A stretch of DNA of 64,000 nt from a virus (Duplodnaviria > Caudoviricetes): positions 589-64,588 of the IMG/VR virus record IMGVR_UViG_3300036651_002280; one strand, written 5' to 3'. Of the stretch, positions 1,212-63,354 are shown piece by piece. The notes beneath the pieces are model-generated. The model was not told the DNA's origin and did not search any database. It worked only from the letters and a program-made list of their open reading frames with translations. Both the position numbers and the translations under genes were made by a program. Position 1 is the stretch's first letter, and each line of letters begins with the position of its first letter.

Positions 1212-1697
1212 ATGCCCGGCCCGACCCCGAAGCCCGCTGGCGCGCGCTCGCGCCGGAACCGGACGTCGACGGCGGCCGTGATCAAGCGCGACCCGAGGGT
1301 CCGCGCACCGAGGCTGCCCGCCCATCCGGGCCTGGAGGACGGGCGCGACTGGCACGTCCAGACGCTGGCCTGGTGGAAGGACGTCTGGAAGTCGCCGATG
1401 GCCCCCGAGTTCGACGAGAGCGACCGGCACGGCCTGTTCAGCCTCGCGCTGCTCGTGGACGACTTCTGGTCGACCGGCTCCGCGCGCCTGCGGGCCCAGA
1501 TCGGCGCCGAGATCCGGCTGCAGGGCGTCCGCTTCGGCCTCTCGCCGATCGACCGCCGCCGCCTGCAGTGGGAGATCGAGCGCACCGAGGAAGCCCAGGA
1601 GCGCGGCTCTCGCCGTCGCACCAAGCCCGCGCCGACCCCGGCGCCGAGCGGCGACCCGGTCGCCGATCCCCGCGAAGTGCTCCGGCTGGTGCAGTGA
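1212..1697 (+). CDS. terS: Terminase small subunit
   Basis: PTPKP..RRN N-terminus, WW..VW.SPMA, EIRLQ..FGLSP.DRRRLQWEI; upstream of terL. Confidence 0.8.
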   Translation: MPGPTPKPAGARSRRNRTSTAAVIKRDPRVRAPRLPAHPGLEDGRDWHVQTLAWWKDVWKSPMAPEFDESDRHGLFSLALLVDDFWSTGSARLRAQIGAEIRLQGVRFGLSPIDRRRLQWEIERTEEAQERGSRRRTKPAPTPAPSGDPVADPREVLRLVQ

Positions 1698-1978
1698 GGG
1701 TCGCCGAGATCAGCCGGGCCGAGCGGGCGGTCGCCAACGAGCTGCTGGCCGACGGCGCCGGGAACCGGGAGATCGCCGACCGGCTCGCGCTCAGTGAGGA
1801 CACCGTCAAGAGCCACGTCAAGGAGCTGCTGGCCGCGACCGACTGCGAGACCCGGACCGAGTTCGCCGTCAAGGTGCTCCGCCGCCAGATCCACCTGAGC
1901 GTGGTGCCGCGACCGGGGCGACGCGCGAGGAGGCCATGTGGCGACGCTGTGTGTGCCGAAGCTGGAGCCGCGCGGTAA
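1694..1978 (+). CDS. LuxR-type helix-turn-helix protein
   Basis: GTGA overlap with terS; GAGNREIADRLALSEDTVKSHV is a LuxR/GerE HTH signature. Confidence 0.7.
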   Translation: MRVAEISRAERAVANELLADGAGNREIADRLALSEDTVKSHVKELLAATDCETRTEFAVKVLRRQIHLSVVPRPGRRARRPCGDAVCAEAGAAR

Positions 1979-3656
1979 GGAGTGGCCCTCGCTCGGCCCC
2001 TACGTCGTCGAGTTCCTGACCGGCCACCGGCTGGACGGCACCGAGAGCGACCGCTGGAGCGGCTCGATCTTCGGCCCCGGCTCGCTGAAGGGCCAGCAGT
2101 ACCGGATGGACGCGGAGAAGATCGCCGCGACCCTGCGGGCCTACGAGATCTACCCGCCGGACCACCCGCTGGCCGGTCGCCGCCGGTTCAAGCGCGTCGG
2201 CCTGTCCTGGCGCAAGGGCACGGCGAAGACCGAGTGGGCCGCGCAGATCTGCTACGGCGAGCTGCACGAGGACGGCCCGGTGCGCTTCGCCGGGTGGGAG
2301 ACCACGCTCTCCGGCGACCTGGTGATCGACCCGATCCTCGAAACGCCGGTGCCGAAGTTCCGCCCCGTCAACGACCCCTACATCCCGATGGTCGCCTACA
2401 CCGAGGACCAGGCCGAGGAGCTGGCCTACGGCGCGCTGATGGTGATCGTCGGCGAGGGGCCCGACGCCGACCGCTTCGACGTCGCGCTGGAGCGCATCAT
2501 CCGGCTCAACGACCGCGGCTTCCCGGACGGGAAGGCCGTGGCGCTCTCCGGCTCGCCGAACGCCAACGACGGCGCGCGGACGACGTTCCAGCACTTCGAC
2601 GAGACGCACCGCATGGAGCTTCCGCGGCTGGTCGCGGCGCACGAGACCATGCTCGGCAACATCCCCAAGCGGACCCTGGACGACCCGTGGTCGCTGGAGA
2701 CCACCACGGCCGGTCGGCCGGGCGCCAACAGCGTCGCGGAGGGCACCCACAAGGAAGCCCAGATGATCGCCGACGGCAAGATCGACGATCCCGAGCTGTT
2801 CTACTTCCACCGCGAGGCCAGCGCGCACCACGACCTCTCGAAGCTCGACGGCCGCATCGCCGCGGTCGCCGAGGCCACCGGCCCGGCGGGGGAGTACGGC
2901 CCCGGCCAGTTCCGCGACATCGCCAAGCAGTGGGAACGGCCCAACGCCGACACCAGCTACCTGGAGCGCGTCTGGCTCAACCGCTGGACGCGCTCGGACC
3001 TCAACGCCTACGACGTCGGGGCCTTCAGCAAGCTCGGCAAGCGCCCCAAGCTCACCCGGCGGGCCTTCGTCACCGTCGGCTTCGACGGCGCGCGCTTCAA
3101 GGACGCCACCGGCTTCGTCCTGACCGACATCCAGAGCGGCGTCCAGCAGCCCTACGGCCTGTGGGAGCGGCCGGAGGACGTCGACGACTGGGAAGTGCCC
3201 ATCGACGAGGTCAACGCCGTCTTTGACGAGATCATGGAGCGCTTCGACGTCTGGCAGGTCTACGGCGACCCGCCGCACTACGTCGAGACGATGGCGACCT
3301 GGGCCAGCAAGCACCCCGACCACGTCACCGAGTGGTGGACGAACCGGCGCCGCCCCATGCACGAGGCGGCGAAGGCGTACCAGGAGGCCATCAACACCGG
3401 CGTCCTCGGCCACACCGACGACCCTGACGACCCGGACAACCGCAACCTGATCCGGCACGTCGGCAACGCCGGGCGCTACGACACCAACCTGCTCGACGAG
3501 CAGGGCAAGAAGATCTGGATCCTGACCAAGATCCAGCCGCACCTGAAGTTCGACCTGTGCATGGCCGCCGTGCTGTCCTGGCGGGCCCGGCTCGACGCGC
3601 TCGCCAAGGGCGCCAAGCCCAGCGGCGCCGAGTTCGTCCCCTACCGCATCCGCTGA
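1938..3656 (+). CDS. terL: Terminase large subunit
   Basis: Walker A-like RKGTAKT, Walker B FDETH, TTTAG coupling motif, nuclease GFDG..D and FDLCMA. Confidence 0.92.
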   Translation: MATLCVPKLEPRGKEWPSLGPYVVEFLTGHRLDGTESDRWSGSIFGPGSLKGQQYRMDAEKIAATLRAYEIYPPDHPLAGRRRFKRVGLSWRKGTAKTEWAAQICYGELHEDGPVRFAGWETTLSGDLVIDPILETPVPKFRPVNDPYIPMVAYTEDQAEELAYGALMVIVGEGPDADRFDVALERIIRLNDRGFPDGKAVALSGSPNANDGARTTFQHFDETHRMELPRLVAAHETMLGNIPKRTLDDPWSLETTTAGRPGANSVAEGTHKEAQMIADGKIDDPELFYFHREASAHHDLSKLDGRIAAVAEATGPAGEYGPGQFRDIAKQWERPNADTSYLERVWLNRWTRSDLNAYDVGAFSKLGKRPKLTRRAFVTVGFDGARFKDATGFVLTDIQSGVQQPYGLWERPEDVDDWEVPIDEVNAVFDEIMERFDVWQVYGDPPHYVETMATWASKHPDHVTEWWTNRRRPMHEAAKAYQEAINTGVLGHTDDPDDPDNRNLIRHVGNAGRYDTNLLDEQGKKIWILTKIQPHLKFDLCMAAVLSWRARLDALAKGAKPSGAEFVPYRIR

Positions 3657-3673: not shown

Positions 3674-3892
3674 GTGCACTGGCTGAGTCGCCTCCTCGGC
3701 ATGGACAACCCGAGCGGCCCCGTGTACCTCGCCTGGTCCGGCTGGGTCGGCGACCTGCCGCTGTTCGGCGCTCTCTGGGTCCTCTACCACCGGCACAACT
3801 GCCACGCGCGCCGGTGCCCGCGGATCGCCAAGCACAGCGTCGACGGCACCCCGTACTGCACCCGCCATCACCCGAAGGGGGACCGTCTGTGA
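3674..3892 (+). CDS. Small membrane protein with C-terminal C/H motif
   Basis: GGAGG RBS; hydrophobic segment then HNCH..RC..YC.RHHP. Confidence 0.6.
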   Translation: MHWLSRLLGMDNPSGPVYLAWSGWVGDLPLFGALWVLYHRHNCHARRCPRIAKHSVDGTPYCTRHHPKGDRL

Positions 3893-5583
3893 CCAGCCCC
3901 TCGGATTCCGGCAGCAGCGAGGGCGTCGTCGTTCCCGGCGGCTCCGGGAAGCCCACCGGAATGGAGGCCGAGGTCGAGGTCCCCGACAGCGACGCCTGGT
4001 GGCTGAAGCGGCTGTACGAGCTGCTGACCCAGCAGCGCGTGTACTGCCAGGCGATGCTCGACCGCTTCTACGGCGAGGCCCCGCTGCCCTACGTCAGCGA
4101 CATCCAGCGCGACGCGGTGAAGTGGTTCGTCGGGCAGTCCCGGACCAACTTCGAGCGGCTGATCGTCAACAGCGTGCTCTCCCGGCTGCGGATCAAGGGC
4201 ATCCGCACCGCGGTCGGCGTCGGCGACGAGGGTGACGCCGATGCCTGGAAGATCTGGAAGAACAGCCGCGGCAAGATCTGGGCCCACGAGGCGATGAAGC
4301 TCGCGCTGGCCGCCTCGCGCGCCTACGTGATCGTCGGCAAGGACGCCGACGGCAACCTCCTGGTCACCGCCGAGGACCCGCGGATGGTCTGCGCCATCAC
4401 CGACCCGGAGAACCCCTACCGGGTGCTGGCCGGGATGAAGGTCTACTTCGACTACGTCGACGGCACCGAGAAGACGTTCCTGTACCGGCCCGGCAAGGCC
4501 CCCCGCGTCGCCGTCCGGCGCTCCGGCCAGCCGCCGGTCACCGAGACCTGGTTCCAGCCGCGCGCCTACGAGTGGATCGACGCCAGCCTGGTCGCGCCGG
4601 AGTTCGACGAGAACAGCTACGTCGTCGACACCACCGGCGGCGCCAACTGGCTGGCCGCCCACGACGGCCTCCCGGCGCTGTGCCCGATCGTGCCGCTGGT
4701 CAACGAGGACGGCCTGAGCGAGTTCGAGCCCTTCCTGCCGCTGATCGACCGGATCAACCAGCAGATCCTGCAGCGGATGACGATCGCCACCATCCAGGCG
4801 TTCAAGCAGCGCGCCTTCAAGGGCCTGCCGCAGAAGGACCCGCAGACCGGGAAGGACATCGACTACGACTCGATCTTCGTCGCCGACCCCGGAGCCATCT
4901 GGAACATCCCCGCGTCTGCCGAGATCTGGGAGTCCGGCCAGGTCGACCTCCAGCCGATCCTGCTGGCCATCCGGGACGACGTCAAAGACCTGGCTGCAGT
5001 CTCTGGCACGCCGCTCTACTCGATCTCGCCGGACGTGGCGAACGGCAGCGCGGAAGGTGCCTCACTCCAGCGCGAGCAGATGAGCTTCAAGGTCGAGACC
5101 CGGATGGACAGCTTCGGCATCTCCCTGGAGATGGTCAACGAGCTGATCTTCCGCACCCTCGGCGACACGTCCCGCTCGACGCCGGGCAGCACCGAGATCA
5201 TCTGGGCCCAGCCGGACCGGCCGAGCATGGCCGAGCGCGCCTCGGCCATCGCGCAGACCAGCGGCGTCATCCCCCGCTACCGGCAGCTGACCGACATCTG
5301 GGGCTACTCACCCAGCGAGGCCGACCGCGCGATGAACGAGCTGCGCCAGGACTTCCTGATGGACCTGCAGTTCGCTGCGGCGGCCACGCCGCAGCCGCCG
5401 CAGGCCCCCGGCCACGGCGGTGGGCAGCTCGGCCCGCAGCAGCAGGCGGCCAAGGCCACCGCGCAGTCTCAGCCGAAGATGGTCGGCTCCGAGGGCGCGC
5501 GGCCGCAGATCCAGGGCAACCGCAAGCCCCCGCAGGCCGCCCGGACCTCGCAGAAGCCGAAGTCCCCCGGTGTCGGTTCGTAA
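3889..5583 (+). CDS. Portal protein (SPP1 gp6-like)
   Basis: Follows terL; RTNF..LIV, SEFEP...LIDRIN, QAF.QR, ADPGAIW, NGSAEGA motifs. Confidence 0.9.
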   Translation: MTSPSDSGSSEGVVVPGGSGKPTGMEAEVEVPDSDAWWLKRLYELLTQQRVYCQAMLDRFYGEAPLPYVSDIQRDAVKWFVGQSRTNFERLIVNSVLSRLRIKGIRTAVGVGDEGDADAWKIWKNSRGKIWAHEAMKLALAASRAYVIVGKDADGNLLVTAEDPRMVCAITDPENPYRVLAGMKVYFDYVDGTEKTFLYRPGKAPRVAVRRSGQPPVTETWFQPRAYEWIDASLVAPEFDENSYVVDTTGGANWLAAHDGLPALCPIVPLVNEDGLSEFEPFLPLIDRINQQILQRMTIATIQAFKQRAFKGLPQKDPQTGKDIDYDSIFVADPGAIWNIPASAEIWESGQVDLQPILLAIRDDVKDLAAVSGTPLYSISPDVANGSAEGASLQREQMSFKVETRMDSFGISLEMVNELIFRTLGDTSRSTPGSTEIIWAQPDRPSMAERASAIAQTSGVIPRYRQLTDIWGYSPSEADRAMNELRQDFLMDLQFAAAATPQPPQAPGHGGGQLGPQQQAAKATAQSQPKMVGSEGARPQIQGNRKPPQAARTSQKPKSPGVGS

Positions 5584-6880
5584 GGCACACCTCGCCCGCC
5601 AGGCCGCCGTCTACGCGGCCGGGCTGCCCACCTTCCTGCGGCGCAACCCGACCTTCGGCAAGCTCGCCGCGAACATCGGCGCCATCCCCCAGGGGTTCGG
5701 CTACGGCGGCCTGGAGGCGGCCCTGGCCATCGCCAGCGGCCAGCAGCAGCAGCAGCAGTCACTGGTCGCCATGGCGGGCGTGCCCAGCAACCTCACCGAG
5801 CTGGTCGCGCTGCTGGAGATCCAGTCGCAGCTGCAGCAGCAGTCGGTCACCCAGGCGCAGGTGATCACCGTCCAGGCGGTCTACCAGTTCCAGAGTTGGT
5901 ATGACAGCGAGCTGATCCAGAACTGGGCGCAGCAGCTGGCCCCGAAGGTCGACGCGCTCGCCCACGCCATCGCCTCGCAGACCGACGCCTACATCGCCTC
6001 CATGGTCAACTGGGCCAACGACCTGAAGACCAAGCCCGGCGAGTTTCACAACAGGTACATGCGGACCGAGGGCACCGTGGAGACCGGCGACAAGCTCCGC
6101 GAGGGCAACACCACCCACGCCGGGGTCTACGGCCGCATCGCCGACGTCTACCGCTGGCAGCAGCACCGCCACGACCAGCACGCGATCAAGATCGCCACCG
6201 ATCCGAACCCCGCGCCCCCGGCCCTGCAGAGCCCGCTGGACGCCGCGCTGGCCCGCGCGCACGACATCGCCAGCACCGACATCCAGCTGGCCGTCCGCAA
6301 GCAGGCCATGCACAGCCTGCGCGGCGCGGAGCGGCGGGGCCTGATCATCGGCTACCGCCGGGTGTTGCACCCCGAGTTCGACCGCACCGGCGTCTGCGGG
6401 CTGTGTGTGGCCGCGTCGACCAAGATCTACAAGACCAGCCACCTGATGCCGCTACACCAGGACTGCCACTGCACGCCGTTCCCGGTCGTCGAGGGTCACG
6501 ACCCCGGCGCGTTGATCAACGACCACGACCTGACCCAGCTCTACGACCTGGCGGGCGGCACCGATCGCGCCGGGCTGGAGCGCACCCACTTCTCGATCGT
6601 CCAGCACGGGGAGAACGGCCCGTGGCTGATCCCCACCGGCGCCGCGCACCGCACGCCGGGCATGGTCAAGAAGGCCACGGCGCCGCGGCCGCGCAGCGCC
6701 GACAGCGAGGCCCGCAAGCGCCGCCAGCTCACCACGCTGCGCGACAGCTTGGCGCGCTCGCTGCAGCGCGTCGACGACCAGCTGAAGCCCGACGCTCCCG
6801 ACAAGTGGACCGAGTACCGCGAGACGCTGGCCGACCGCATCGCCAGCCTGGACCGCCAGCTGAAGGGAGGGTCGCTGTGA
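5570..6880 (+). CDS. MuF-like minor head / capsid maturation protein
   Basis: After portal; GYRRVLHPE..CGLC..AS...PLH..CHC MuF-type motif; no C-terminal toxin domain. Confidence 0.75.
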   Translation: MSVRKAHLARQAAVYAAGLPTFLRRNPTFGKLAANIGAIPQGFGYGGLEAALAIASGQQQQQQSLVAMAGVPSNLTELVALLEIQSQLQQQSVTQAQVITVQAVYQFQSWYDSELIQNWAQQLAPKVDALAHAIASQTDAYIASMVNWANDLKTKPGEFHNRYMRTEGTVETGDKLREGNTTHAGVYGRIADVYRWQQHRHDQHAIKIATDPNPAPPALQSPLDAALARAHDIASTDIQLAVRKQAMHSLRGAERRGLIIGYRRVLHPEFDRTGVCGLCVAASTKIYKTSHLMPLHQDCHCTPFPVVEGHDPGALINDHDLTQLYDLAGGTDRAGLERTHFSIVQHGENGPWLIPTGAAHRTPGMVKKATAPRPRSADSEARKRRQLTTLRDSLARSLQRVDDQLKPDAPDKWTEYRETLADRIASLDRQLKGGSL

Positions 6881-7164
6881 CTGCCCCCGGCAACTTCACC
6901 TCGATCACCTCCCGCGGCGACGCGCAGGCGCTGATGCCCGAGCAGGTCTCCAACGCCGCGCGCACCGCCGAGTCCCGTCGCTCGGCTGCTGGCCGCGCCA
7001 CGGTCGGCCCCGACGGCAAGGTGCACGTCGACGGCAAGCACGTCGGCAAGGTCTTCAAGAGCGGCCGCGCCTGGCGGGCCCGGACCAAGTCCGGCCAGCT
7101 GCCGGGGATGCACGGAACGAAGCAGGAGGCGGTCGGCGCGCTGGTCCTGCAGCACGGGGCCTGA
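6877..7164 (+). CDS. Small basic protein bearing a copy of the major capsid N-terminal segment
   Basis: GTGA overlap and GGAGG RBS; SRGDAQALMPEQVSN vs capsid SRGDAQALMPEEVSN. Confidence 0.7.
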   Translation: MTAPGNFTSITSRGDAQALMPEQVSNAARTAESRRSAAGRATVGPDGKVHVDGKHVGKVFKSGRAWRARTKSGQLPGMHGTKQEAVGALVLQHGA

Positions 7165-7167
7165 CCG

Positions 7168-7908
7168 GTGGCCAAGCCGCCGGTCGTGCATCACTGGAAG
7201 CACGGCTGGATCCCTCTGGATGCCACCGCCATGGCCGAGAAGCGCCGCGGGCGGAGCGTCGCCGGAGCGGTCACCCTGGAGCACCCGAAGGCCAGTCTGC
7301 CCGGACCCCCGCCGAAGCACACCCCCCTGAACGAGCTGCCGCGCATCCAGGGCGCCCACTCGCTGCGCGAGGACGTCGTGCGGAGCAACCCCAGCTTCAA
7401 CCAGGGCGACGAGTTCAAGGTCAACTGCGTGCACTGCGTGAACACCTGGGAACTGCGCCGCCGCGGCTACGACGTCGTCGCCACGCCCCTCCCGGCCGAC
7501 CTGTTCCGGCAGAACGGACGTAGCGCCCAGGATGCGCTGAACACCTCCTGGCGCACCCCGTCCGGCGAACGCCGTCGGTTCACCGACAGCAGCAGGGTGG
7601 GCGTCTACAACCAGATCGCGGCCTGGCCGGACGGCGCCCGCGGCTGGGTCAGCGTGAACTGGAAGGCGGGCGGCGCCCACATCTTCGGCGTCGAGCGTCA
7701 CGGCGGCCAGACCACCTTCGTCGACCCCCAGCGCGGCAAGGTCAACGTCGACGAGTACTTCGATCGCGCGACCCCGATCATCAGGCTGGTCCGCACCGAC
7801 GACCTGACCCCCGAGAACCGCGTCACCCAGTTCTCCGCCGAGGCCACCCCGGAGCAGCGTCTCATCGCCGCGCGCAACGCCTCCAGCTCCAGTTTCAAGG
7901 GATACTGA
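7168..7908 (+). CDS. HWKHGWIPLD-tagged papain-fold toxin (Tox-PL, deamidase-like)
   Basis: NCVHC..ELRRRGYDV, AHIF, FVDPQ give a Cys-His-Asp triad. Confidence 0.8.
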   Translation: MAKPPVVHHWKHGWIPLDATAMAEKRRGRSVAGAVTLEHPKASLPGPPPKHTPLNELPRIQGAHSLREDVVRSNPSFNQGDEFKVNCVHCVNTWELRRRGYDVVATPLPADLFRQNGRSAQDALNTSWRTPSGERRRFTDSSRVGVYNQIAAWPDGARGWVSVNWKAGGAHIFGVERHGGQTTFVDPQRGKVNVDEYFDRATPIIRLVRTDDLTPENRVTQFSAEATPEQRLIAARNASSSSFKGY

Positions 7909-7910
7909 GC

Positions 7911-8198
7911 GTGATGACGGTCACCTTCGACGACGCCCGGCGCCGGGTGCAGATCCACCTGGCCGCGAAGTGGAGCGACCAGCTCGGCACCCTGACCACA
8001 CTGCCCGAGGGCTTCGAGGACGCCACCCACTGGCGCGTGGTCGCCGGTGCCCGCGAGGCGCTGGTCGACGGCGACGACGACTACCAGCTGATGGACGCCC
8101 CGGCGCTGCTGGTCGACAAGCGCACCGGCGCGGTCACCGAGGTGTCGGTGCTCGACCACCTCGACCAGCTCGACCGGATGCGGCCGACCGTCAGCTGA
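7911..8198 (+). CDS. Putative immunity protein (Imm35/YrhB-like)
   Basis: Directly after toxin; T.D.A.., E...HW.V, P.LLVDKRTG.V pattern. Confidence 0.65.
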   Translation: MMTVTFDDARRRVQIHLAAKWSDQLGTLTTLPEGFEDATHWRVVAGAREALVDGDDDYQLMDAPALLVDKRTGAVTEVSVLDHLDQLDRMRPTVS

Positions 8199-8259
8199 TC
8201 GTCAGGCGAGGTTGACCCGAGCCGACGTCTGCCCAGTGATGACCGATTCTCTCGGTCAA

Positions 8260-8286
8260 GGAATGATGACGTCGGACACTCGGTTG
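8260..8286 (+). promoter_or_regulatory. SigR/SigH-type ECF promoter
   Basis: GGAAT-N18-GTTG in an intergenic gap; 21 bp identical to the leftward promoter at 40740-40760. Confidence 0.6.
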
Positions 8287-8300
8287 AAGGTGGTGTGACC

Positions 8301-8843
8301 ATGACCACCCGCCACCACTACCACTGGAAGCACGGCTGGATCCCGCTCGACCACGCCGCTGCGATGAAGAAGGCCCACGGCGACAAGACCGCCGCGGCCA
8401 AGGCGCTCGCCCAGGCGAACGCCTCCGACCCCAAGACCGCCGACAAGCTGATCCACTCGATCAAGGCCAACGGCGGCTTCACCTACGACCCGACCAAGGG
8501 CCGACTGCTGCAGGTCGGCAAGGACAAGGGCTTCGCCGTCGCGGTGCCCGGCACTGAGCAGCTGGTCGGCAACGGCGAGGTCTCCCGCGAGGACTTCGCC
8601 AAGGGCGTCGCCCAGGTCGTCAAGCAGCACGCCGACAAGCTGGCCAACGGCCACGTCCTGGGCGGCTGGTACTCCGAGGACCGCAACGCCTACATGGTCG
8701 AGCTGACCCAGATCATGCCCGCCCATGACCGGGCCGGGGCCATCGCCGAGGGCATGCGGCGCAACCAGGAAGGCATCTTCGACCTCTCGACCGGGGACTA
8801 CATTCCCACCGGAGGTACCGGAGATGCCCTCAACACCCCATGA
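8301..8843 (+). CDS. HWKHGWIPLD-tagged protein of unknown function
   Basis: Tag at N-terminus; C-terminal domain GGFT..GFAV..GGWY..E..QEGIFDL..TGGTG. Confidence 0.8.
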   Translation: MTTRHHYHWKHGWIPLDHAAAMKKAHGDKTAAAKALAQANASDPKTADKLIHSIKANGGFTYDPTKGRLLQVGKDKGFAVAVPGTEQLVGNGEVSREDFAKGVAQVVKQHADKLANGHVLGGWYSEDRNAYMVELTQIMPAHDRAGAIAEGMRRNQEGIFDLSTGDYIPTGGTGDALNTP

Positions 8844-9000
8844 CCCGCCCCGCAAGCACTACGTCCGCCCCGCCAAGGGGCAGAAGCCGGACGACCAGGA
8901 AGCCCTCTCGATGGGCTACGCCCTGTTCGACCACATCGCCAGCGAGCAGGCCAAGGCCGCTCGACAGGGCGAGGGAGACGGAGACCAGCCGGGGAGGTAG
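8824..9000 (+). CDS. Small partner protein (58 aa), possible inhibitor/immunity
   Basis: GGAGG RBS, overlaps 3' end of tagged gene. Confidence 0.5.
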   Translation: MPSTPHDPPRKHYVRPAKGQKPDDQEALSMGYALFDHIASEQAKAARQGEGDGDQPGR

Positions 9001-9004
9001 CTCC

Positions 9005-10165
9005 ATGGCAGCCGTGCCGAAGGTGTACCACTGGAAGCACGGCTGGATCCCGCTGGACGCCTACGCCAAGCTGGAGCAGTCCAAGCGCGGCTCGGCCGCC
9101 AAGCTCGCCGAGAACCCGATCGCCTCCCGGCTGGCCGCCCCCGTGCGCGGCCTCAACGACCTCTCCCCGGCGCTGCAGACCAAGATCAACGCCAAGATGT
9201 CCGCGCTGACCGGCATGCCCGAGCCCAAGCTCGCCGCCAAGGTCCAGGACAACCTCGTCCGCCTCTACGGCACCGGCGACAAGAAGGCGTTGACCTGGTA
9301 CGCCGACGAGGGCGCCGACATCGGCCGCCGAGCCGCCGCCCTGCGGGCCCAGTACGGCATCAAGCTCACGCAGGAGCAGCTGACCGGCATGGTCGCCGTC
9401 ACCTCCGCGCACAAGCGCTGGCTGGAGAACAAGGACTTCGCCGAGGCCATCGCCCGCAAGCTCGCCGAGGACAAGCCGTTCCCGGTCAGCCAGGAGATGA
9501 TCAACGACTACAACACCTTCGTCGGCAAGCGCCGCAACGGGCTGCTGAAGGTCCACCCCGAGCTGAAGCCGGGCACCTACAAGCCTAGCGAGCTGCCCAC
9601 CGACTTCGCCGTCTCGAAGACGCCGGGCATGCCGCGGCACCTGAATACCGACTACGTCGTCAACGCCGCGCGGATCTACCGCAACGAGGCCACGCTCGAC
9701 CAGGTGGTCGGCGGCCCCAAGCAGCGCAGCTTCGTCAACAACCTGATGAGCCCCGCGGACCCCCGTTCGGTCACCGTCGACACCTGGCACTACCGTGCCG
9801 CCATGCAGGGCATCCCGCTGACCTACGACTTCGGCCCGAAGGGGCAGAAGAAGACCTACAGCTACACGCTGGAGCAGTGGGCCGACCGCGAGCTGGCGCG
9901 CAACGACGGCCGGGCGGCCATGTTCGGCTACGACCCGAGCAAGCCCCCCACCGAGAAGCACAACCTGAAGGCCATCTTCAAGGCCACGAAGGACCCCCAG
10001 GACTTCTTCCAGAGCGGGCCCGCCGCGGTCGCCGACAAGTACGACGGCAGCTACGGCACCTACCCCTGGTTCGTGAAGCAGACCCAGGCCGCCGCGAGCA
10101 AGCTCAGCGTCTCGCCGTCGAGCATGCAGGCCGTCGCCTGGTACTCCGTGGGCGGCGGGCTGTGA
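9005..10165 (+). CDS. HWKHGWIPLD-tagged protein, possible HhH/DNA-glycosylase-like fold
   Basis: GGAGG RBS; WY, A.TS...W..N, GPK..SF.NN, VTVDTW, QAVAW motifs; Lys-rich. Confidence 0.7.
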   Translation: MAAVPKVYHWKHGWIPLDAYAKLEQSKRGSAAKLAENPIASRLAAPVRGLNDLSPALQTKINAKMSALTGMPEPKLAAKVQDNLVRLYGTGDKKALTWYADEGADIGRRAAALRAQYGIKLTQEQLTGMVAVTSAHKRWLENKDFAEAIARKLAEDKPFPVSQEMINDYNTFVGKRRNGLLKVHPELKPGTYKPSELPTDFAVSKTPGMPRHLNTDYVVNAARIYRNEATLDQVVGGPKQRSFVNNLMSPADPRSVTVDTWHYRAAMQGIPLTYDFGPKGQKKTYSYTLEQWADRELARNDGRAAMFGYDPSKPPTEKHNLKAIFKATKDPQDFFQSGPAAVADKYDGSYGTYPWFVKQTQAAASKLSVSPSSMQAVAWYSVGGGL

Positions 10166-10365
10166 TGGCCGCCTGGAAGCCCCTGGACCCCTACCGGGGC
10201 AAGGAGATCGAGCCGCTGCACGGCCAGGAGCTGATCGACCTGGTCGACTTCTACAAGCGCACCGCCGACCAGAACGGCGAGCCCCACGACCCCGAGTGGG
10301 ACCGCTGGCTGGCCGAGGACGCCGAGGGTCCCGACGACGAACCGGACGACGCCCCGAGCGCGTAG
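10165..10365 (+). CDS. Small acidic partner protein (66 aa), possible immunity
   Basis: TGATG coupling to upstream gene; D/E-rich. Confidence 0.6.
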   Translation: MAAWKPLDPYRGKEIEPLHGQELIDLVDFYKRTADQNGEPHDPEWDRWLAEDAEGPDDEPDDAPSA

Positions 10366-10465
10366 CGCCCCCAGCTTCACACTCAGCTTCACACCCCCAC
10401 CCCAGCACCCCCGAGGCCCAAGAGCCACGGGGGTGCTGTCGTCTCACAGGGAAGGCGGTGGGGGA

Positions 10466-11167
10466 GTGGCGGGCTTCAATCCGAATCAGCCGCGCGTGCC
10501 CGCCGGGCAGGGGGGCGGCGGCGAGTGGGGATCACCCCGTAGCGCCTCCGCCGCGGCGGCCCAGAAGAACCAGGCCGCGGTCGCGGCGTACCAGCACCTG
10601 CTGAAGCTGCCACCGGGCCAGCGGGCGGCATACGTGAAGGGTCTGTCGACCTCGCAGCTGGAGCACCTGACCGCGGTCGCCTACAGCTTCCACACCAGCA
10701 ACTCCAACGTCGTCGGGGCGCGCTACGCGCTGTCGAAGGAGATGACCCACCGGGGCATCCCGATCACGAAGTACGGCGCACTCGGCGGCGGCCTGGCGGC
10801 CAAGCACGCCCCGGCCAAGCACGCCCCGGCCAAGCATCAGACGGCGGCAGCCCACCAGGCGGCGGCAGCCAAGAAGGCCGCCGCCCAGAAGCTGGCACAC
10901 CAGAAGAAGGTAGCGAGCCTGCAGAAGAAGGAAGCGAGCCTGCAGAGCCGGAGCACGAAGACGCAGGCGGCGCTGAACAAGCGCATCGCGGCCATCGACG
11001 CCCAGGAGAAGAAGGCGCGAGCCGCCAAGAACCAGAAGACCGCCACCGGGCGCCTGAAGGCGCTCGACGCCAGGGAGCTGAAGGCCCGGATGGCGGCCGC
11101 CCACAAGGAAGCCGCGCTGAGCGCTCAGGAGCGCAGCGTGCAAGCCCAGCTGAAAGCCCTGGGCTGA
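10466..11167 (+). CDS. Lys/Ala-rich histone-like protein with N-terminal FNPNQPRVPAG..GGEW motif
   Basis: AKHAP repeats, AAKK runs, coiled-coil C-terminus. Confidence 0.7.
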   Translation: MAGFNPNQPRVPAGQGGGGEWGSPRSASAAAAQKNQAAVAAYQHLLKLPPGQRAAYVKGLSTSQLEHLTAVAYSFHTSNSNVVGARYALSKEMTHRGIPITKYGALGGGLAAKHAPAKHAPAKHQTAAAHQAAAAKKAAAQKLAHQKKVASLQKKEASLQSRSTKTQAALNKRIAAIDAQEKKARAAKNQKTATGRLKALDARELKARMAAAHKEAALSAQERSVQAQLKALG

Positions 11168-11260: not shown

Positions 11261-11851
11261 ATGACCATGCCCACAGGAGACTCGGGCGACAACGGCCAGA
11301 CCCCCGAGGGCGACGAGCCCGAAGGCACTGGCCAGCAGGGCGGCCAGCAGTCGGAGTGGAAGCCTCCGGCCTCCCAGGAGGAGCTGGACCGAATTATCAC
11401 CGACCGCCTGAAGCGGGAGACGCGGAAGTTCCGCGACTACGACTCGCTGAAGGCCAAGGCGGAGCAGTACGACAGTCTCGCCGCTTCGGTCCAGACGGAC
11501 CAGGAGCGGGCCATCGCCGAGGCCCAGGAGCAGGCGTTCAACGCCGCGATGGGGTCCGTCGTGCCGCGCCTCGTGCGGGCCGAGTTCAAGGCTGCCGCAC
11601 TCGGCAAGTTGACCGGCGAGCAGCTGGAGACGCTGCTCGAAGACGTCGACCTGACCAAGTACGTCGACGACGACGGCGAGCCGGACGTCGACCGCATCAA
11701 GCGGAAGGTCGAGGCGCTCGCGCCGAGGACTCCGCCTCCCAGCTTCGGGCAGGGCCAGCGCCAGCAGGTCCAGGCCCCGAAGTCCATGAACGACCTGATC
11801 AGGGGCCTGGCCACCAAGGGCACCGTGACCCTCAGCGGCCGCGACCTCTGA
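11261..11851 (+). CDS. Capsid scaffolding protein
   Basis: Acidic N-terminus, SQEELDRII..RL.RE..KF.DYD.LK.KA; just before capsid. Confidence 0.85.
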   Translation: MTMPTGDSGDNGQTPEGDEPEGTGQQGGQQSEWKPPASQEELDRIITDRLKRETRKFRDYDSLKAKAEQYDSLAASVQTDQERAIAEAQEQAFNAAMGSVVPRLVRAEFKAAALGKLTGEQLETLLEDVDLTKYVDDDGEPDVDRIKRKVEALAPRTPPPSFGQGQRQQVQAPKSMNDLIRGLATKGTVTLSGRDL

Positions 11852-11919: not shown

Positions 11920-12870
11920 ATGCCGAACAACAACATCATCAGCCGGGGCGATGCCCAGGCCCTGATGCCGGAGGAGGTCTCGAACGAGCTGCTGCGCACC
12001 GTGGTCAGCCAGTCCGCGGTCCTCAGCCGGTTCCGCCGGATCCCCGTGGGACGCCAGCAGGTCCGCCTGCCCGTCCTGTCCGCCCTCCCGACCGCCTACT
12101 TCGTCGCCGGTGACACCGGTCTGAAGCAGACGACCGAGATGGCCTGGGCGAACAAGTTCCTCAACATCGAGGAGATCGCCGTCATCGTCCCGATCCCGGA
12201 CAACGTGATCGCCGACATGGAGGCGAACATCTGGGACGAGGCCATGCCGCTGCTCACCCAGGCGTTCGGCCGGTGCCTGGACAACGCGGTGTTCTTCGGG
12301 GTCGGCGCGCCCGCGTCCTACCCGACCAACATCGCGGCTGCGGCCGCTGCGGCGGGCAACATCGTCGTCGAGGGCGCCAACGACGCGGCTGCGGCCGGTG
12401 GGTACTTCAACGACGTCGACGCCCTGCTGGCCGCCGTCGAGGCCGACGGCTACGAGGTCAACGGCTGGGTCGCGGCGACCTCGTTCAAGTCCAAGCTGCG
12501 CTCCGCGCGCAACACGCTCGGTGACCGGCTCGACCAGAACCGGGTCAACGGGCCGCTGACCGAGCTGGACGGGTACCCGATCAGCTACCCGATGCGGGGC
12601 ATGTTCCCGACGTCCTCCGGCGGCGCTCGCGTCTTCGGTGGCGACTTCGACCAGTTCGTGGTCGGTGTCCGGCAGGACATCTCGATGAAGGTCAGCAACG
12701 AGGCTGTCATCCAGGACGCTGCCGGGAACATCGTCTACAACTCGTTCCAGCAGGACCTGACCTTCCTCCGGCTGACCTTCCGGGTCGGCTGGCAGGTGGC
12801 GAACACGATCAACTACGACAACCCGGACGACAGCACCCGCTACCCCGTGGGCGCTCTCACCCTGGCCTGA
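11920..12870 (+). CDS. Major capsid protein (HK97 fold)
   Basis: L.PEEVS, P.AYFV, EEIAVIVPI, GDF, N.FQQD...LR...RVG. Confidence 0.92.
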   Translation: MPNNNIISRGDAQALMPEEVSNELLRTVVSQSAVLSRFRRIPVGRQQVRLPVLSALPTAYFVAGDTGLKQTTEMAWANKFLNIEEIAVIVPIPDNVIADMEANIWDEAMPLLTQAFGRCLDNAVFFGVGAPASYPTNIAAAAAAAGNIVVEGANDAAAAGGYFNDVDALLAAVEADGYEVNGWVAATSFKSKLRSARNTLGDRLDQNRVNGPLTELDGYPISYPMRGMFPTSSGGARVFGGDFDQFVVGVRQDISMKVSNEAVIQDAAGNIVYNSFQQDLTFLRLTFRVGWQVANTINYDNPDDSTRYPVGALTLA

Positions 12871-17541: not shown

Positions 17542-20500
17542 GTGCCCATCTACAGCGCCGGTTCGGCCAGCGTCAAGATCGTCCCGGACTTCTCGGGCGC
17601 GCAGAAGGACATCGGCGAGTGGTTCGCGCGCCAGGGTGACCTGCGCGTCAAGATCAAGCCGGAGGTCGACGACCGGGCGCTGCTCGAATCCAAGGCCAAG
17701 ATCAACTCCGTCGTCGAGTCGGACAAGCCGAAGCTGGAAGTCGACGAGGAGCACCTCGCCCGCTCCATCGGCCGCGGCATCGACGAGGCGCTGCGCTCGC
17801 TGAGCACCGTCGACACGCTCAACGCCGCGGTGCAGGGCGCCATCATGCCCTCGATGATCTCCGTCCTCGTGGGCGGACTCGTCGAGCTGGGCAGCTCGCT
17901 GACGCAGGTGATCGGGGTGCTCAACCTGGTCCCGGCGCTCCTGCTGGGCCTCGCCGCCCCGATGGCCACCGTACTCGTCGGCATCAGCGGCATGACCACC
18001 GCCTTCAAGATCTTCAGTGCGCAGACTCCGGCCCAGCTGAAGGTCGCCCAGCAGGCGCTGAACAAGCTCGCGCCCGCGGCGCGCGACTTCGTGATGCAGG
18101 TCCACCAGCTCGCGCCCGCCTTCCACGCGCTGAGGATGGACGTCCAGCAGCAGCTGTTCCAGAACCTGGGCACCGCCGTCGACCGGCTCGGTCGCGTGGC
18201 GTTCCCGGTGATGCAGAAGGGGCTCGCTGGTATCGCCAGCGGGCTGAACAGCGGGCTCATCGCCACCATGCAGCGCCTGACCACGATGGGCCCGGCGTTC
18301 ACGACGATCTTCGGCAACATCGACAAGTCGGTCGCCACCGTGGCCAACGGCGCGATGCCGATGCTGACGGCCGACTTCGTCGCGCTTGCCAAGGTCGGCA
18401 GCCAGTTCCTGCCGCAGCTGGCCTCCGGCTTCGTCACCCTCTCTCAGAAGTTCGACGCCTGGCTGACCCACGCGATGAACACCGGCGCGATCGTCCGCCA
18501 GATCCAGCAGGCGTTCCAGGTCATCACCCAGGTCAGTCACCTGGTGATGAACCTCGGCGGCAGCATCAGCTCGATCTTCTCGGCGGCCCTGCCCTTCGGG
18601 AACCAGCTGCTGGCCCTGCTGAACAAGGTGACCGGCGCGCTCTCGGCGTTCCTGAAGACGAGCACGGCCCAGGATGGGCTGAAGACGTTCTTCGCCGACG
18701 TCGACAAGGTCGCCCAGACCCTGCTGCCGGTGCTGCTGCAGATGGTCCAGGTGCTCGTCGCCGACGTGCTGCCGGTCATCGGCGACCTGGCGGCGGCTAT
18801 CGCCCCTGTCATCGGCGAGCTGGGCAAGCAGCTGGCCGAGACGGTCGCCCACATCACCCAGATGCTGCCGCCGCTGGCCGAGGTCATCGCCTCGCTGATC
18901 GAGGGCATGCAGCCTCTGATCCCGGTGCTCGGGCAGATCGTCGAGACGCTGCTGCCCCCGTTCCTGGTGGTCGGCAAGCAGCTCGGGCCGGTCATCGACG
19001 GCCTGGCCCGCACCGCGGCCGGGATCTTGCTGCAGGCCGCCCAGGCGCTGGCCCCGGCCCTGTCCGACCTCGGCACAGCCTTCCTGCACATCCTCGGCGC
19101 GATCACGCCGATGATCGCCCCGCTGGGCACCATCGTGACCTCGCTGCTGCCGCCGATGCTGCTGATCATCCAGGCGCTCCTGCCGTTCATCACGACGCTC
19201 GTCGACAACTTCGCCCACCTGGGCACCACGGTGCTGATCGGCCTGCAGCCCGCGATCAAGGCCCTCGCCGAGACGCTGAGCAACGTCGTCCTGCCGGTGA
19301 TCAAGTTCCTCGGCCCGGCGCTGCCTCCGCTGGTGGAGAGCGTCATCGCCTGGCAGCTGGCCACCGGCGCGCTCGGCCTGGTCATGGAGGCGATCAAGTT
19401 CGGGCAGTGGATCGCCTTCGTCGTGCAGTACGCGATCCAGGTCGACCTGGCCGCGGCCGCCACGAAGGGCTGGGCCATCGCCCAGGCTGCCTGGGCGGTG
19501 GTGACCAACCTCGGCACCTACGCCTCGATGGCCGCCGCGCTGGCCAAGTACGTGGTCACCGTCGACCTGGTGTCGGCCGCCACGAAGGCGTGGGCCATCG
19601 CCCAGGCGGTGCTCGACGCGCTGATGAGCCCGGTCGTCCTGGTGATCTTGGCCATCACGGTCGCGGTCGCCGCGCTGGCCTTCGGCATCTACGAGCTGGT
19701 CACGCACTGGACGACGGTCTGGGCGACGATCAAGCAGGTCGCCGTCGACGTCTGGCACGCCCTGGAGGCCGCCGCCGACTTCGCCTGGAACAAGGTCATC
19801 AAGCCGGTCTTCGCCGCGCTGGAGACCGGCGCGCTGTGGCTGTACAACAACGTGCTCCACCCGGTCTTCACCGGCATCGTGGCCGCCTGGAACGCGCTGG
19901 GCGTGGCCTTCCAGTGGACCTGGGACAACGTCCTGCACCCGCTGTGGGTCGTGATCGAGGACGTGGCCAAGGTGCTGCTGGCCATCCTCGGTGTCGTCGT
20001 CTTCGGGCCGATCGCGCTGCTCTGGAAGGGCATGTCGGAGCTGATCGCCCTCACCTACCGGGACGTGATCAAGCCCTGCTGGGACGCCATGCAGAAGGCC
20101 GCGGTCTGGCTGTACCAGAACGCGCTGCTGCCCACCTGGCACGCGATCGAGACCGCCTGGAGGGCCCTGGGGACGGCGCTGCGCTGGGTCTATGACAACG
20201 TCGTCAAGCCCTGCTGGGACGCCATGCAGAAGGCCGCGGTCTGGCTGTACCAGAACGCGCTGCTGCCCACCTGGCACGCGATCGAGACCGCCTGGAGGGC
20301 GCTGGGGACGGCGCTGCGCTGGGTCTACGACAACGTCATCCAGCCCTCCTGGCACGCCCTGCAGACCGCGGCCAGCTTCATGTGGAACAGCGTGCTGAAG
20401 CCCATCTGGCACGCGATCCAGACCGGCTGGAGCGCCCTGGGCGACGGCCTGCGCTGGGTCTACGACCACACCGTCGCGCCGATCTGGGGCTTCTTCCACA

Positions 20501-37097: not shown

Positions 37098-37799
37098 TCA
37101 GGCGTAGACGAGCTGCTGTCCGGCCTGGTCAGCCGGGACCTCGACGTCCTCGTAGCAGATGTCGCACGACTCGCCCGTCTCGCATCCCCTGCGGTAGCCC
37201 TCCCTGAGCCGCCGGACCGTTACAGGCTCCGGCCCCGCCTCCTCCAGCAGATCGCCGATGATCCTCAGCACGTCGTCGAGGGTGTTGCTGCCGCTGAACA
37301 GCGCGGCGCGCTGGTTGTAGGTCAGGCCGAGCTTCTCCTGGGCGTAGTCCTCGACGCGGACCTCCTCGTCGGGGTCGATCTCGGGGAAGACGACCCGGCT
37401 GGTGTCGTAGCCGGGGGAGAACCGGGCCCAGTCGCCCAGCTCGTCGACGACGGGCACGCCGCCGTCCTCGATGGCGACCTTCCCCGCGATGCAGCACGCG
37501 GTGCCGCAGCCGCCGACCTCGGCGGCGCCGTCCCGACGGGTGAGCCAGGCTCCCTGCTCCCACTCGTTCGGCAGGCCGAGCCGCCGCTTCGCGTCCTCCC
37601 CGGCCGCCCACTGGGCGAGCCGGATCAGCCGCTGCCGGTTGGGGCCCGGCACGTCCTGCACCTGGCCGTAGTCCTCCAGGTCGACGGTCCTGACGCGGTC
37701 GTCGGCGCGGAGCACCTGCGCCACGACGTCGGCCGGGGCCTGGTTGCCGACGGTCACGACGTCGACGGTGACCGTCTGGCGCTTCTTCTTGCTACCCAT
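37098..37799 (-). CDS. Hypothetical phage protein
   Basis: W.Q..W...CGT.CCIAG, LGL...Q..ALF. Confidence 0.7.
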   Translation of the reverse strand: MGSKKKRQTVTVDVVTVGNQAPADVVAQVLRADDRVRTVDLEDYGQVQDVPGPNRQRLIRLAQWAAGEDAKRRLGLPNEWEQGAWLTRRDGAAEVGGCGTACCIAGKVAIEDGGVPVVDELGDWARFSPGYDTSRVVFPEIDPDEEVRVEDYAQEKLGLTYNQRAALFSGSNTLDDVLRIIGDLLEEAGPEPVTVRRLREGYRRGCETGESCDICYEDVEVPADQAGQQLVYA

Positions 37800-37889
37800 G
37801 GTTCCTGTTCCTCCTGGATGGTGGTGGCGTCGGATGCCGATCTGGCCTCCGCGGAGCCCGGCCGGACGTGCCGGTCGGGACCGTGGGAG

Positions 37890-38225
37890 TCACTCGGCGA
37901 CGGTGTGGCCCCCGGCCTGCTGGAAGCGGACCCCGGCGAGGAACGCCGACGCCCAGAGCGCGGCGAACGCCTTCACCGGGTCGATCAGGCCGAGGACCAG
38001 CATCGGCAGGATCGAGTGCAGCGAGCCGCTGGCGGCCAGCATCGAGGTGTCGTAGAGCGACGTCGGGTCGGCCAGGTCACCGAAGGCGGCCTGCATCTGG
38101 GCGATGGCGTCGTCCTGGCCGACGGGCGCCCGGTCCTCCCAGCCCTCGGGAAGACTGGCGTCCTGCTCGTCGAGCACCCGCCGCATCAGGTCGAAGTCGG
38201 GGTGCTGGGTGGTGGTGTCGGACAT
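37890..38225 (-). CDS. Hypothetical protein (paralogue of 38832-39155)
   Basis: AAGGAG RBS; PV....LW...FL.G.R.QQ. Confidence 0.7.
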   Translation of the reverse strand: MSDTTTQHPDFDLMRRVLDEQDASLPEGWEDRAPVGQDDAIAQMQAAFGDLADPTSLYDTSMLAASGSLHSILPMLVLGLIDPVKAFAALWASAFLAGVRFQQAGGHTVAE

Positions 38226-43485: not shown

Positions 43486-43649
43486 TGAAGATCACGAGCT
43501 ACCGGATCCGCTGGCGGCGCGGCGCCGCACGAGGCGGCCAGCAGTGCTCGCACACCGTCGCCGGGCGCATGGAGGCCGTCGACGAGCTGCGCTCGATCGA
43601 GCTGGCGGGGTGGACGTGCGGCTGCGAGCGGCACGATGGCGCCGCGTAA
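43485..43649 (+). CDS. Stand-alone duplicate of integrase N-terminal domain (54 aa)
   Basis: TSYRIRWR.G..R.GQQCSHT...R..AVD.LRSIELAGW.C.CERH shared with Int. Confidence 0.6.
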   Translation: MKITSYRIRWRRGAARGGQQCSHTVAGRMEAVDELRSIELAGWTCGCERHDGAA

Positions 43650-63075: not shown

Positions 63076-63354
63076 ATGGTCGCCGGACGCGCAGTCACGC
63101 CGAAGGAAGTCAAGTCCGCCGAGGAGCTGCACAAATACTGGGTGGCCGGTCCCGGACTGAAGAAGTGGGCCGATTCTCCGCACCCGTGGACGGCGCTGCA
63201 CCGCGAACTGGCCAAGTACATCCACGACCCGAAGCTGCTGGACGCCACCGTCTCGAAGTGGCACTTCGAGGTCTTCCACCAGCACACCGGCTCCGACGCT
63301 TACCGGGTGGAGCACGGCGGCAAGATGCGCGGCAAGAGGATCGGCCCTGGGTGA
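63076..63354 (+). CDS. Hypothetical protein (L.KYW..G.G..KW...P...L...L.KY motif)
   Basis: Upstream GAGGA/AGGA; Trp/His-rich. Confidence 0.65.
   Translation: MVAGRAVTPKEVKSAEELHKYWVAGPGLKKWADSPHPWTALHRELAKYIHDPKLLDATVSKWHFEVFHQHTGSDAYRVEHGGKMRGKRIGPG

Follow-up and report, generated by a model that had tools for sequence, protein, structure and literature searches.

A near-invariant peptide at the start of unrelated effector-type proteins in actinophage head modules: a candidate signal for loading cargo into the virion

Why should three unrelated proteins, encoded one after another among the head genes of a phage, begin with the same ten residues? The question is raised by a stretch of 64,000 nucleotides (hereafter the window) spanning positions 589 to 64,588 of the IMG/VR tailed-virus record IMGVR_UViG_3300036651_002280, in which a cassette of small genes separates the gene for a short MuF-like minor head protein from that for the head scaffolding protein (Table 1). 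An earlier reading of the sequence (the original prediction) had pointed out the peptide HWKHGWIPLD near the start of three unrelated proteins, encoded from 7168, 8301 and 9005, and had proposed that it docks interchangeable toxin or anti-defence cargo into the prohead. We confirm the presence of this peptide, which we call the tag, at the residues given in Table 1, and we report that it heads a wide range of otherwise dissimilar phage proteins whose genes are linked to packaging or head genes. On this basis we tentatively favour the view that the tag is a docking motif, which would load effectors into the virion in trans.

The conservation observed in the window concerns the peptide and not the underlying DNA. 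The 23-mer CACTGGAAGCACGGCTGGATCCC occurs exactly three times, on the + strand at 7192, 8322 and 9029, and no match to it was found in 100 dinucleotide shuffles, even allowing three mismatches; nucleotide identity among the three copies ends at the borders of the motif and covers these 23 nt only. The DNA identity noted in the original prediction is real, but it carries no signal of its own: with the peptide held fixed and the codon usage of this phage (CAC 0.98, AAG 0.995, GGC 0.73, ATC 0.99), three copies would be identical with P ~0.33, so that codon bias and peptide conservation together explain the match. Synonymous codons differ over 29 copies from other contigs (CAT, GGG/GGT, ATT/ATA and all four CCN), which argues that selection acts on the peptide. 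Beyond the tag the three proteins share 19-23% identity in alignment and belong to different families. A loose regular expression applied to all window open reading frames (ORFs) of at least 60 residues found no copy outside the three tagged genes, in agreement with the earlier statement that MuF, portal, scaffold and capsid lack the tag. All three tagged genes have their own start codons, and two show clear Shine-Dalgarno matches.

The tag extends well beyond this phage. A degenerate DNA scan of IMG/VR returned 31 copies spread over 20 contigs, none of which holds more than four, and in 28 of the 31 the motif starts no more than 14 codons from a candidate start codon; three tagged proteins are encoded in the window and four in each of two other contigs (L015 and L017). 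The resulting consensus reads M-A-x-G-[KRH]-[VI]-x-HWKHGWIP-[LIV]-[DTS]-x-x-A, the invariance of its core in this set being a consequence of the search pattern, which imposed it. An unbiased profile search of 1.84 billion protein representatives yielded 291 matches at E ≤ 1e-3, 35 of them at E ≤ 1e-10, and the best 150 of these 291 provide the counts of position and cargo family reported here. The first tryptophan lies at residue 7-10 in 136 of the 150 and within the first 20 residues in 144, and most copies read HWKHGWIP followed by L, V or I, with rare changes of R for K, Y for W and V for I. Outside viral collections, a scan of 185,579 species genomes produced five matches, two of which look genuine and occur in one Streptosporangiaceae metagenome-assembled genome; two others (L028 and L031) were rejected as out of frame or devoid of a nearby start, and a third (L029), despite a start nearby, was rejected as a spurious-looking ORF of 40 residues. 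Searching for homologues with residues 1-40 of the 9005 protein recovered only the query itself among six candidates, the word index having missed the tag, and a search of PDB sequences with the tag profile gave no match at E ≤ 10. The string 'HWKHGW' is absent from 8.4 million full texts (supplements and subscription-only papers lying outside this scope), and topical full-text searches, likewise exclusive of supplements, turned up no account of a common peptide on stand-alone effectors of head modules.

What follows the tag is variable. Once the tag and the 45 residues after it had been trimmed, 133 cargo regions grouped into 52 BLAST clusters (sizes 37, 21, 6, 5 and so on, with 38 singletons). 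Pfam recognises a minority of the best 150 proteins (ADPrib_exo_Tox 8, Gln_amidase 4, Zeta_toxin 2, DUF3560 2, and one each of GNAT, ART-PolyVal, ART, ParB_N, LysM, ATLF, DUF3626 and VG15), and the tally for 28 proteins taken from the loci comprises five DUF7178, three Gln_amidase and one each of ART (ADP-ribosyltransferase), Zeta and GNAT. Compared with the domain repertoires in the available text of three published surveys (PMC5576092, PMC5512222 and PMC9503650), the tagged cargo families are, as judged by their domain matches, the repertoire of MuF toxins and polyvalent proteins.

Structure prediction adds information on the two window cargos that lack a described domain. The largest cargo cluster corresponds to the 'GGFTY' domain of the 8301 protein, which is well folded in its AlphaFold2 model (predicted local distance difference test, pLDDT, 84.8), with residues 1-14 below 50. 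This model matched no solved structure (best Foldseek PDB hit at E 0.15, best VIA-align Z 4.1) and gave 20 BFVD matches at E ≤ 1e-3; several of these lie within phage proteins of 767-1102 residues, including ones named Zeta toxin domain or XkdF, and the remainder include small actinophage proteins. Weak matches were seen to a stretch of gp34, the 1639-residue 'internal virion protein' of cyanophage P60 (E 4e-6), and to Syn5 gp45 (E 9e-3), and in some tagged proteins further modules come after the GGFTY domain. For the DUF7178 protein encoded from 9005, the AlphaFold2 model is less good, with a pLDDT of 75.3 and residues 1-18 below 50, no solved structure matched it (best Foldseek PDB hit at E 0.19), and its ESM Atlas neighbours are viral DUF7178 clusters. 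The tag lies below pLDDT 50 in both models, which are otherwise confident, and it is accordingly predicted to be intrinsically disordered and to behave as a free linear motif.

Each tagged gene is followed by a tightly linked small gene (at 7911, 8824 and 10165), as originally described, and all three small genes are kept beside the matching cargo gene in other contigs. The first of them begins 3 nt past the stop of the 7168 gene, is retained after the toxin gene in L014 and, in addition to the PHROG match listed in Table 1, shows a match to Imm35 (PF15567, E 0.0022) that falls below the Pfam cut-off. Homologues of 8824-9000 lie downstream of GGFTY genes in L013 (E 1.9e-16), L014, L016 and L005, and homologues of 10165-10365 follow the DUF7178 gene in L011, L013, L015, L020 and L021 (E 2.4e-26 to 2.9e-12). 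These partner genes would most simply encode immunity or chaperone proteins, an assignment with sequence support for 7911-8198 only. The proposed pairing of toxin and immunity partner has family matches behind it for the 7168 protein (PF15644) and 7911-8198 (phrog_3585); the searches assigned no activity to the 8301 and 9005 proteins.

In 19 of the 20 viral contigs, tagged genes have packaging or head genes as neighbours. Thirteen contigs were placed by homology to the large terminase (TerL), portal, MuF, scaffold or capsid of the window, five through whole records (G001-G005) and one (L022) by its portal and S78 protease; the twentieth, L018, is a 1.2-kb fragment. The expectation that in other phages the motif would precede variable domains near head or packaging genes was thereby borne out (19/20 contigs, 52 cargo clusters), but its supposed restriction to the interval between MuF and scaffold was not. 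Tagged genes come after MuF in L004, L006, L014, L015, L017 and L019 and precede the scaffold gene in L005, L013 and L016, and they often sit just upstream of the large terminase (L011, L015, L017, L020 and L021) or, in L008, ~3.4 kb upstream of the terminase. Among the whole records, G001 presents an SPP1-type portal, MuF (PF06152), an ORF with a small domain designated YWT, an in-frame stop, the tag, an ORF read as a putative scaffold and an SU10-type capsid; in G002 and G004 the tagged gene is upstream of the small terminase; in G003 a tagged ADP-ribosyltransferase immediately follows the portal; and G005 combines a portal-MuF fusion (PF04233) and an S78 protease with a 115-residue protein ending ...HHWKHGWIPVG, followed by the capsid. 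In L022 two tagged deamidase-like toxins are encoded upstream of a 497-residue ORF, a PF04860 portal, an S78 protease and the YWT gene. Two relatives found through the YWT gene (L056 9599-11224 and L057 4473-6205) have a short MuF gene directly adjoining the scaffold gene and no tag, and because they possess this backbone without it, the cassette can be regarded as accessory.

The relationship of the tagged proteins to MuF is illustrated by the deamidase domain of the 7168 protein, which matched 143 cultured phage records. Among the Arthrobacter and Microbacterium matches listed, the deamidase forms the C-terminal part of 'capsid maturation protease / MuF-like' genes encoding 532-649 residues, a MuF-linker-deamidase layout with no tag that is seen in Nergal gp7 (595 residues), Colucci gp5 (649) and Mabodamaca gp4 (532); cluster-A-type mycobacteriophages have it as a separate gene 3 close to the left end, again with no tag. 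All eight aligned MuFs from tag-bearing contigs are at most 436 residues long and end within ~90 residues of an HGE.GP motif, the window MuF aligning with its seven homologues through a common C..C...H..C.C core and this motif. No C-terminal effector domain was found in the window MuF (5570..6880), and no toxin Pfam domain matched it. In L004, L006/L017, L015 and Streptomyces phage Araceli, a tagged gene and the gene for a short MuF are direct neighbours. With short MuFs beside tagged genes and the same deamidase fused to MuF elsewhere, describing the effectors as uncoupled from MuF, as the original prediction did, is fair as a statement of synteny.

A few further observations concern MuF itself. 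In all eight short proteins an HGE.GP.L motif lies C-terminal to the Cys/His core (residues ~346-353 of the window MuF). Alignments of the MuF profile in hhalign against a 294-residue protein of G003 and against Araceli gp8 were not significant (probabilities 1.6 and 1.0), and because only the C..C/H.HC.C motif aligned, the MuF status of the G003 protein depends on that motif. Co-folding of tagged N-termini with the short MuF and the YWT protein scored 0.00 against a mark of 0.32 and, run with no controls, constitutes no evidence either way.

Strict N-terminality of the tag, as first supposed, was not sustained. Internal copies occur three times in P0006 (952 residues) and twice each in P0117, P0118 and P0145. 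Each of these copies precedes a module: in P0006 the second is followed by LysM, and in P0117 the first is followed by DUF3626, with a C-terminal ART far downstream of the second. The contexts (I/V)DLAG or PPY recur upstream of internal copies, and P0099 consists of a MuF core and then the tag. By tblastn, nine cultured Streptomyces griseus phages carry a variant of the tag in gp9. The Araceli gp9 ('ADP-ribosyltransferase', 1170 residues; L054 4827-8336) starts 3 nt after the short MuF gp8 (218 residues). It opens with a small 'KKWAAGG' domain and GWKHGWIPVD; a charged linker then leads to a degenerate second copy, and a long linker to the ART. The only C-terminal case seen is the 115-residue protein encoded between S78 protease and capsid in G005, which ends in ...VHHWKHGWIPVG immediately before its stop.

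Several of these composite proteins contain small domains associated with the phage head. The 'KKWAAGG' domain begins both P0006 and Araceli gp9 and recurs in P0145 and in the linker between portal and MuF of G005; it was rejected as a component of the window, where it is not present. The YWT domain (phrog_6439) occurs inside 'head maturation protease' PHROGs and Gordonia phage protease genes, and it heads P0117 and the G001 ORF, where it is fused to the tag (in G001 across the in-frame stop). There, a YWT ORF and a 47-residue tag ORF share one frame with a single stop between them (L003 ~3971-4444, - strand, equivalent to G001 18352-18825), an arrangement that could be a provirus nonsense mutation or programmed readthrough. 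In these architectures the tag thus joins head-associated small domains to effectors in cis, and it also heads stand-alone effectors. As a gene of its own, YWT is found in most tag-bearing records either before the terminase genes or behind the prohead protease. It adjoins tagged genes in both G002 and L008; G000-G004, L008, L020, L022 and L030 all possess it, and its product starts M-A-x-G-[RK], like the tagged proteins. YWT was nonetheless rejected as a tag-specific partner: it is present in 100 cultured Gordonia, Corynebacterium and Mycobacterium phage records, the tag search having found none outside Streptomyces phages, and the motif is absent from the fetched stretch of seven of seven close IMG/VR relatives that have YWT. 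A role of the YWT protein as a receptor belonging to the phage backbone is possible.

In the interpretation that we tentatively favour, the tag would replace, in trans, the covalent link that ties the same effector domains to MuF or to polyvalent carriers in other phages. It would bind a head component or other tagged proteins, the effectors would be loaded into the procapsid and would leave the particle together with the DNA, and the partner genes would protect the producing cell or lysogen, neutralisation being presumed for two of the three partners. We favour docking because of the position of the tag, its predicted disorder, its occurrence at internal and C-terminal sites as expected of a linear motif, its independence of cargo, its linkage to head modules, the nature of the cargo repertoire and the precedents of T4 IPIII and P1 DarB. 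Several observations weigh against it. Many tagged genes lie upstream of terminase genes and not beside MuF, and L022 has no MuF between portal and protease. The capsids differ among carriers (PF05065 with a scaffold in the window and G003, SU10_MCP in G001, PF05065 with an S78 protease in G005), and L022, which also has an S78 protease, belongs to a contig that ends before any capsid gene; portals are of SPP1 or PF04860 type, and MuFs of phrog_1522, PF06152 or PF04233 type. With carrier capsid, portal and MuF families unrelated, a single structural receptor is hard to name, and a near-invariant 8-mer is hard to reconcile with docking onto divergent structural proteins. Two of the three window cargos received no activity from Pfam or fold searches, cultured phages searched by tblastn offered no stand-alone form, only the variant inside gp9 of the nine Streptomyces phages, and the copies at module junctions of polyproteins would suit a processing site just as well. 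A near-invariant 8-mer on unrelated heads points to a generic feature of the packaging vertex, to co-assembly of tags anchored by the head domains fused to some of them in cis, or to a partner that is not of phage origin. In a broader version of the docking proposal, HWKHGWIP would be a portable cargo-loading standard for the same interchangeable effectors across scaffold-type, SU10-type and HK97 protease-type heads, recognised through a generic packaging-vertex feature or through co-assembly of the peptides; we consider this conceivable but doubtful.

The alternatives draw on some of the same evidence. The motif could mark a junction or a processing site, that is, a module boundary, a place where a phage or host protease cuts, or a joint at which cassettes are exchanged by recombination; the stand-alone genes would then be split-off modules that retain this joint N-terminally, and the peptide would not serve in docking. 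The internal copies ahead of successive modules in P0006, P0117, P0118, P0145 and Araceli gp9 suit this explanation, as do the order of MuF core and tag in P0099, that of YWT domain, in-frame stop and tag in G001, and the recurrent (I/V)DLAG or PPY contexts, and 23 nt is near the minimal length for homologous recombination. We nevertheless hold it unlikely, given that 136 of the 150 carriers are proteins in their own right that share a conserved M-A-x-G-K-V leader, that the tagged genes of the window have their own start codons, two with a clear Shine-Dalgarno match, and that a leader of 6-8 residues would be an odd substrate to conserve merely for removal. The window MuF, moreover, has no motif and so provides no full-length gene for orphan cassettes to recombine into, the variation in synonymous codons indicates that DNA homology is not what is conserved, and Pfam and PHROG scans found no prohead protease in the window. 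Near-invariance of HWKHGWIP across phages with no detectable relatedness of capsid, portal or MuF, its occurrence at N-terminal, internal and C-terminal positions and the presence of several tagged proteins per genome (three in the window, four in L015, four in L017) speak for a different alternative, in which the motif binds a conserved host factor, thereby steering effectors to a hub in the infected cell, or binds other copies of itself, so that tagged proteins assemble together; in both cases a partner that stays the same from phage to phage would account for the near-invariance. We judge this improbable too: a purely host-directed motif would have no need of the packaging and head-gene linkage seen in 19 of 20 contigs, and to our knowledge the tag is unlike Tat, Sec or type VII signals. 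A trivial origin through recent local duplication or chance under codon bias, devoid of function, can claim the 23-nt identity expected at P ~0.33 given the peptide, but the lack of any shuffle match, the 291 clusters at E ≤ 1e-3 and the fixed position across 52 cargo clusters refute it, and we give it virtually no credence. Overall, the initial view of the locus as a set of stand-alone effector-type genes in a head module, one of them a toxin with an immunity-type gene, stands, but the confinement to the MuF-scaffold interval and the strict N-terminality do not.

The arrangement resembles, in different respects, several systems already known. Encapsulin cargo-loading peptides are short conserved terminal peptides on diverse cargo that dock on the inner face of an HK97-fold shell, which has no portal, terminase or tail; the window, in contrast, derives from a tailed phage with terminase, portal and integrase, shows no sequence similarity to those peptides and gives no support to the capsid as receptor. 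Orphan CdiA/Rhs toxin-immunity cassettes form arrays of pairs in which each toxin module, a fragment with no start codon, opens with a short shared and conserved stretch, whereas the tagged genes of the window carry starts and ribosome-binding sites of their own, follow an upstream gene that lacks the motif, share no junction homology with a full-length upstream gene and are conserved at the level of the peptide, with DNA identity limited to 23 nt. MuF polymorphic toxins carry a variable toxin domain C-terminal to MuF in one polypeptide, with a small immunity ORF immediately downstream (Jamet et al. 2017, PMC5576092). The window shares with them the place in the genome, behind portal and MuF, the kinds of toxin domain and a small immunity-type ORF after the 7168 toxin, but here a distinct gene with a start codon of its own encodes the toxin, which is headed by a conserved peptide, the MuF ORF ends at 6880 and the tagged proteins match no MuF family; the available text of PMC5576092 makes no mention of stand-alone tagged toxins.

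Polyvalent proteins are likewise encoded in the neighbourhood of head genes and have been proposed to be packaged and then injected (Iyer et al. 2017, PMC5512222; Iyer et al. 2022, PMC9503650), and the same articles call solo ARTs near head genes 'likely packaged'; in the portions of them that are available, no shared peptide on effectors is named. The overlap with the tagged proteins includes the domains ART-PolyVal, DUF3560, ParB_N, ART, GNAT and Zeta as well as the head-gene neighbourhood, and P0006, P0117 and Araceli gp9 are polyvalent-type, multi-domain proteins with an internal tag, but the window proteins are separate small proteins with a single cargo each. N-terminal capsid-targeting sequences exist in T4 IPIII and P1 DarB, proteins regarded as cargo of the head that travels with the DNA, and in the latter, according to the available text (PMC9024508), residues 6-10 are critical and the first 30 residues suffice for packaging, while the N-termini of the P1 Dar proteins share no consensus. 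As in those systems, the tag is a short N-terminal peptide on accessory proteins of the head module (residue 8 or 9 in the window); unlike them, one near-invariant 8-mer is common to at least 52 cargo groups and many phage lineages, and it also occurs internally and C-terminally. With regard to removal by a protease of the T4 type, no protease family was found between the portal and capsid genes of the window; G005 and L022 have an S78 protease.

The genomic setting of the cassette is summarised in Table 1. The window comes from a 64.6-kb IMG/VR virus contig that is rated 83% complete and has a GC content of 70%, and its left end is a late operon that runs from the terminases through portal, MuF, cassette and scaffold to the capsid. 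The phage is temperate, since it encodes a tyrosine integrase; we take it to be a high-GC actinobacterial phage whose late head operon has received the cassette as an accessory insertion. A homologue of the candidate portal sits upstream of a capsid gene in L008, and the GTG at 5570 is our choice of start for a MuF ORF that is open from 5420. No promoter-like site and no + strand terminator-like site was found between 6500 and 12000, which fits co-transcription of the cassette with the head genes, and Pfam and PHROG scans of the window gave no family match to a prohead protease between the portal and capsid genes. Two further ORFs of this region were considered as conserved partners and rejected. 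Residues 4-27 of the 6877-7164 product resemble residues 2-25 of the capsid protein (capsid DNA 11920-11995, + strand; 24 of 49 residues identical), the common arm reading SRGDAQALMPE[Q/E]VSN; this ORF has no family match in Pfam or PHROG and, among the other loci, a homologue only in the close relative L014. From this resemblance, it may represent a second way into the shell for a small protein, or a duplication remnant. The 10433-11167 protein, whose N-terminus reads FNPNQPR...GGGGEWG and whose long C-terminal half is rich in Ala and Lys, matched no family and lacks homologues in the other loci.

Table 1. Features of the window and of related loci discussed in the text (positions refer to the window unless a locus or record is named).
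Feature	Position	Strand	Evidence or remark
Small terminase	1212-1697		Terminase_7
Candidate large terminase, 572-residue ORF	1938-3656		Used as TerL query
Candidate portal, 589-residue ORF	3814-5583		Homologue in L008
Short MuF-like minor head protein	5570..6880	+	phrog_1522, E 1.1e-40
95-residue ORF copying the capsid N-terminal arm	6877..7164	+	BLASTP E 7e-9 against capsid protein
Tagged protein 1, 246 residues, papain-fold glutamine deamidase toxin domain	7168..7908	+	Gln_amidase PF15644, E 1.8e-10, residues 86-191
Tag copy 1 (HWKHGWIPLD)	7192..7221	+	From residue 9 of the 7168 protein
Partner of tagged protein 1, 95 residues, immunity-type	7911..8198	+	phrog_3585 'immunity protein', E 4e-22
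Tagged protein 2, 180-182 residues, 'GGFTY' domain	8295/8301-8843	+	No Pfam match
Tag copy 2 (HWKHGWIPLD)	8322..8351	+	From residue 8 of the 8301 protein
Partner of tagged protein 2, 58 residues	8824..9000	+	Overlaps the end of the 8295 gene
Tagged protein 3, 386 residues, DUF7178 (phage-only family)	9005..10165	+	PF23802, E 9.7e-12
Tag copy 3 (HWKHGWIPLD)	9029..9058	+	From residue 9 of the 9005 protein
Partner of tagged protein 3, 66 residues, acidic	10165..10365	+	1-nt overlap with the stop of the 9005 gene
244-residue Ala/Lys-rich protein before scaffold	10433..11167	+	Not part of the conserved system
Head scaffolding protein	11261..11851	+	phrog_4708, E 8.5e-16, plus nine further scaffold PHROGs
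Major capsid protein, HK97 fold, no delta domain	11920..12870	+	PF05065, E 1.7e-24
Putative tape measure, 1392-residue ORF			
Tyrosine integrase	43636-44820	+	PF00589, E 4.5e-19
Lysin: transglycosylase, LysM (weak), NlpC/P60	62067-63062	+	Immediately upstream of the YWT gene; right end of the record
Small YWT domain protein, phrog_6439 type	63076..63351	+	Backbone of this phage lineage
115-residue C-terminally tagged protein	L012 2920-3264 = G005 37663-38007	-	
YWT genes elsewhere	L008 4236-4460; L038 706-945; L010 3957-4196; L020 336-566; L022 3-284; L030 586-894		

Even if docking proves to be wrong, a near-invariant motif of eight residues in ~290 phage protein clusters calls for an explanation. 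Should the tag be a loading signal, it would be the first capsid-targeting sequence known to us with a clear consensus over many cargos and lineages, and it would amount to a one-line sequence rule for proteins that phages inject, covering at least 52 cargo groups that likely include toxins and counter-defence factors. The tag could also serve as a small portable label for packaging chosen proteins into actinophage particles. Under the broader version, that of a portable loading standard, the ~290 tagged clusters, most of them with no recognised domain, would constitute a catalogue of injected effectors together with their immunity or chaperone partners. For the phages themselves, such a signal would explain how MuF-type toxin delivery came to be split into separate genes.

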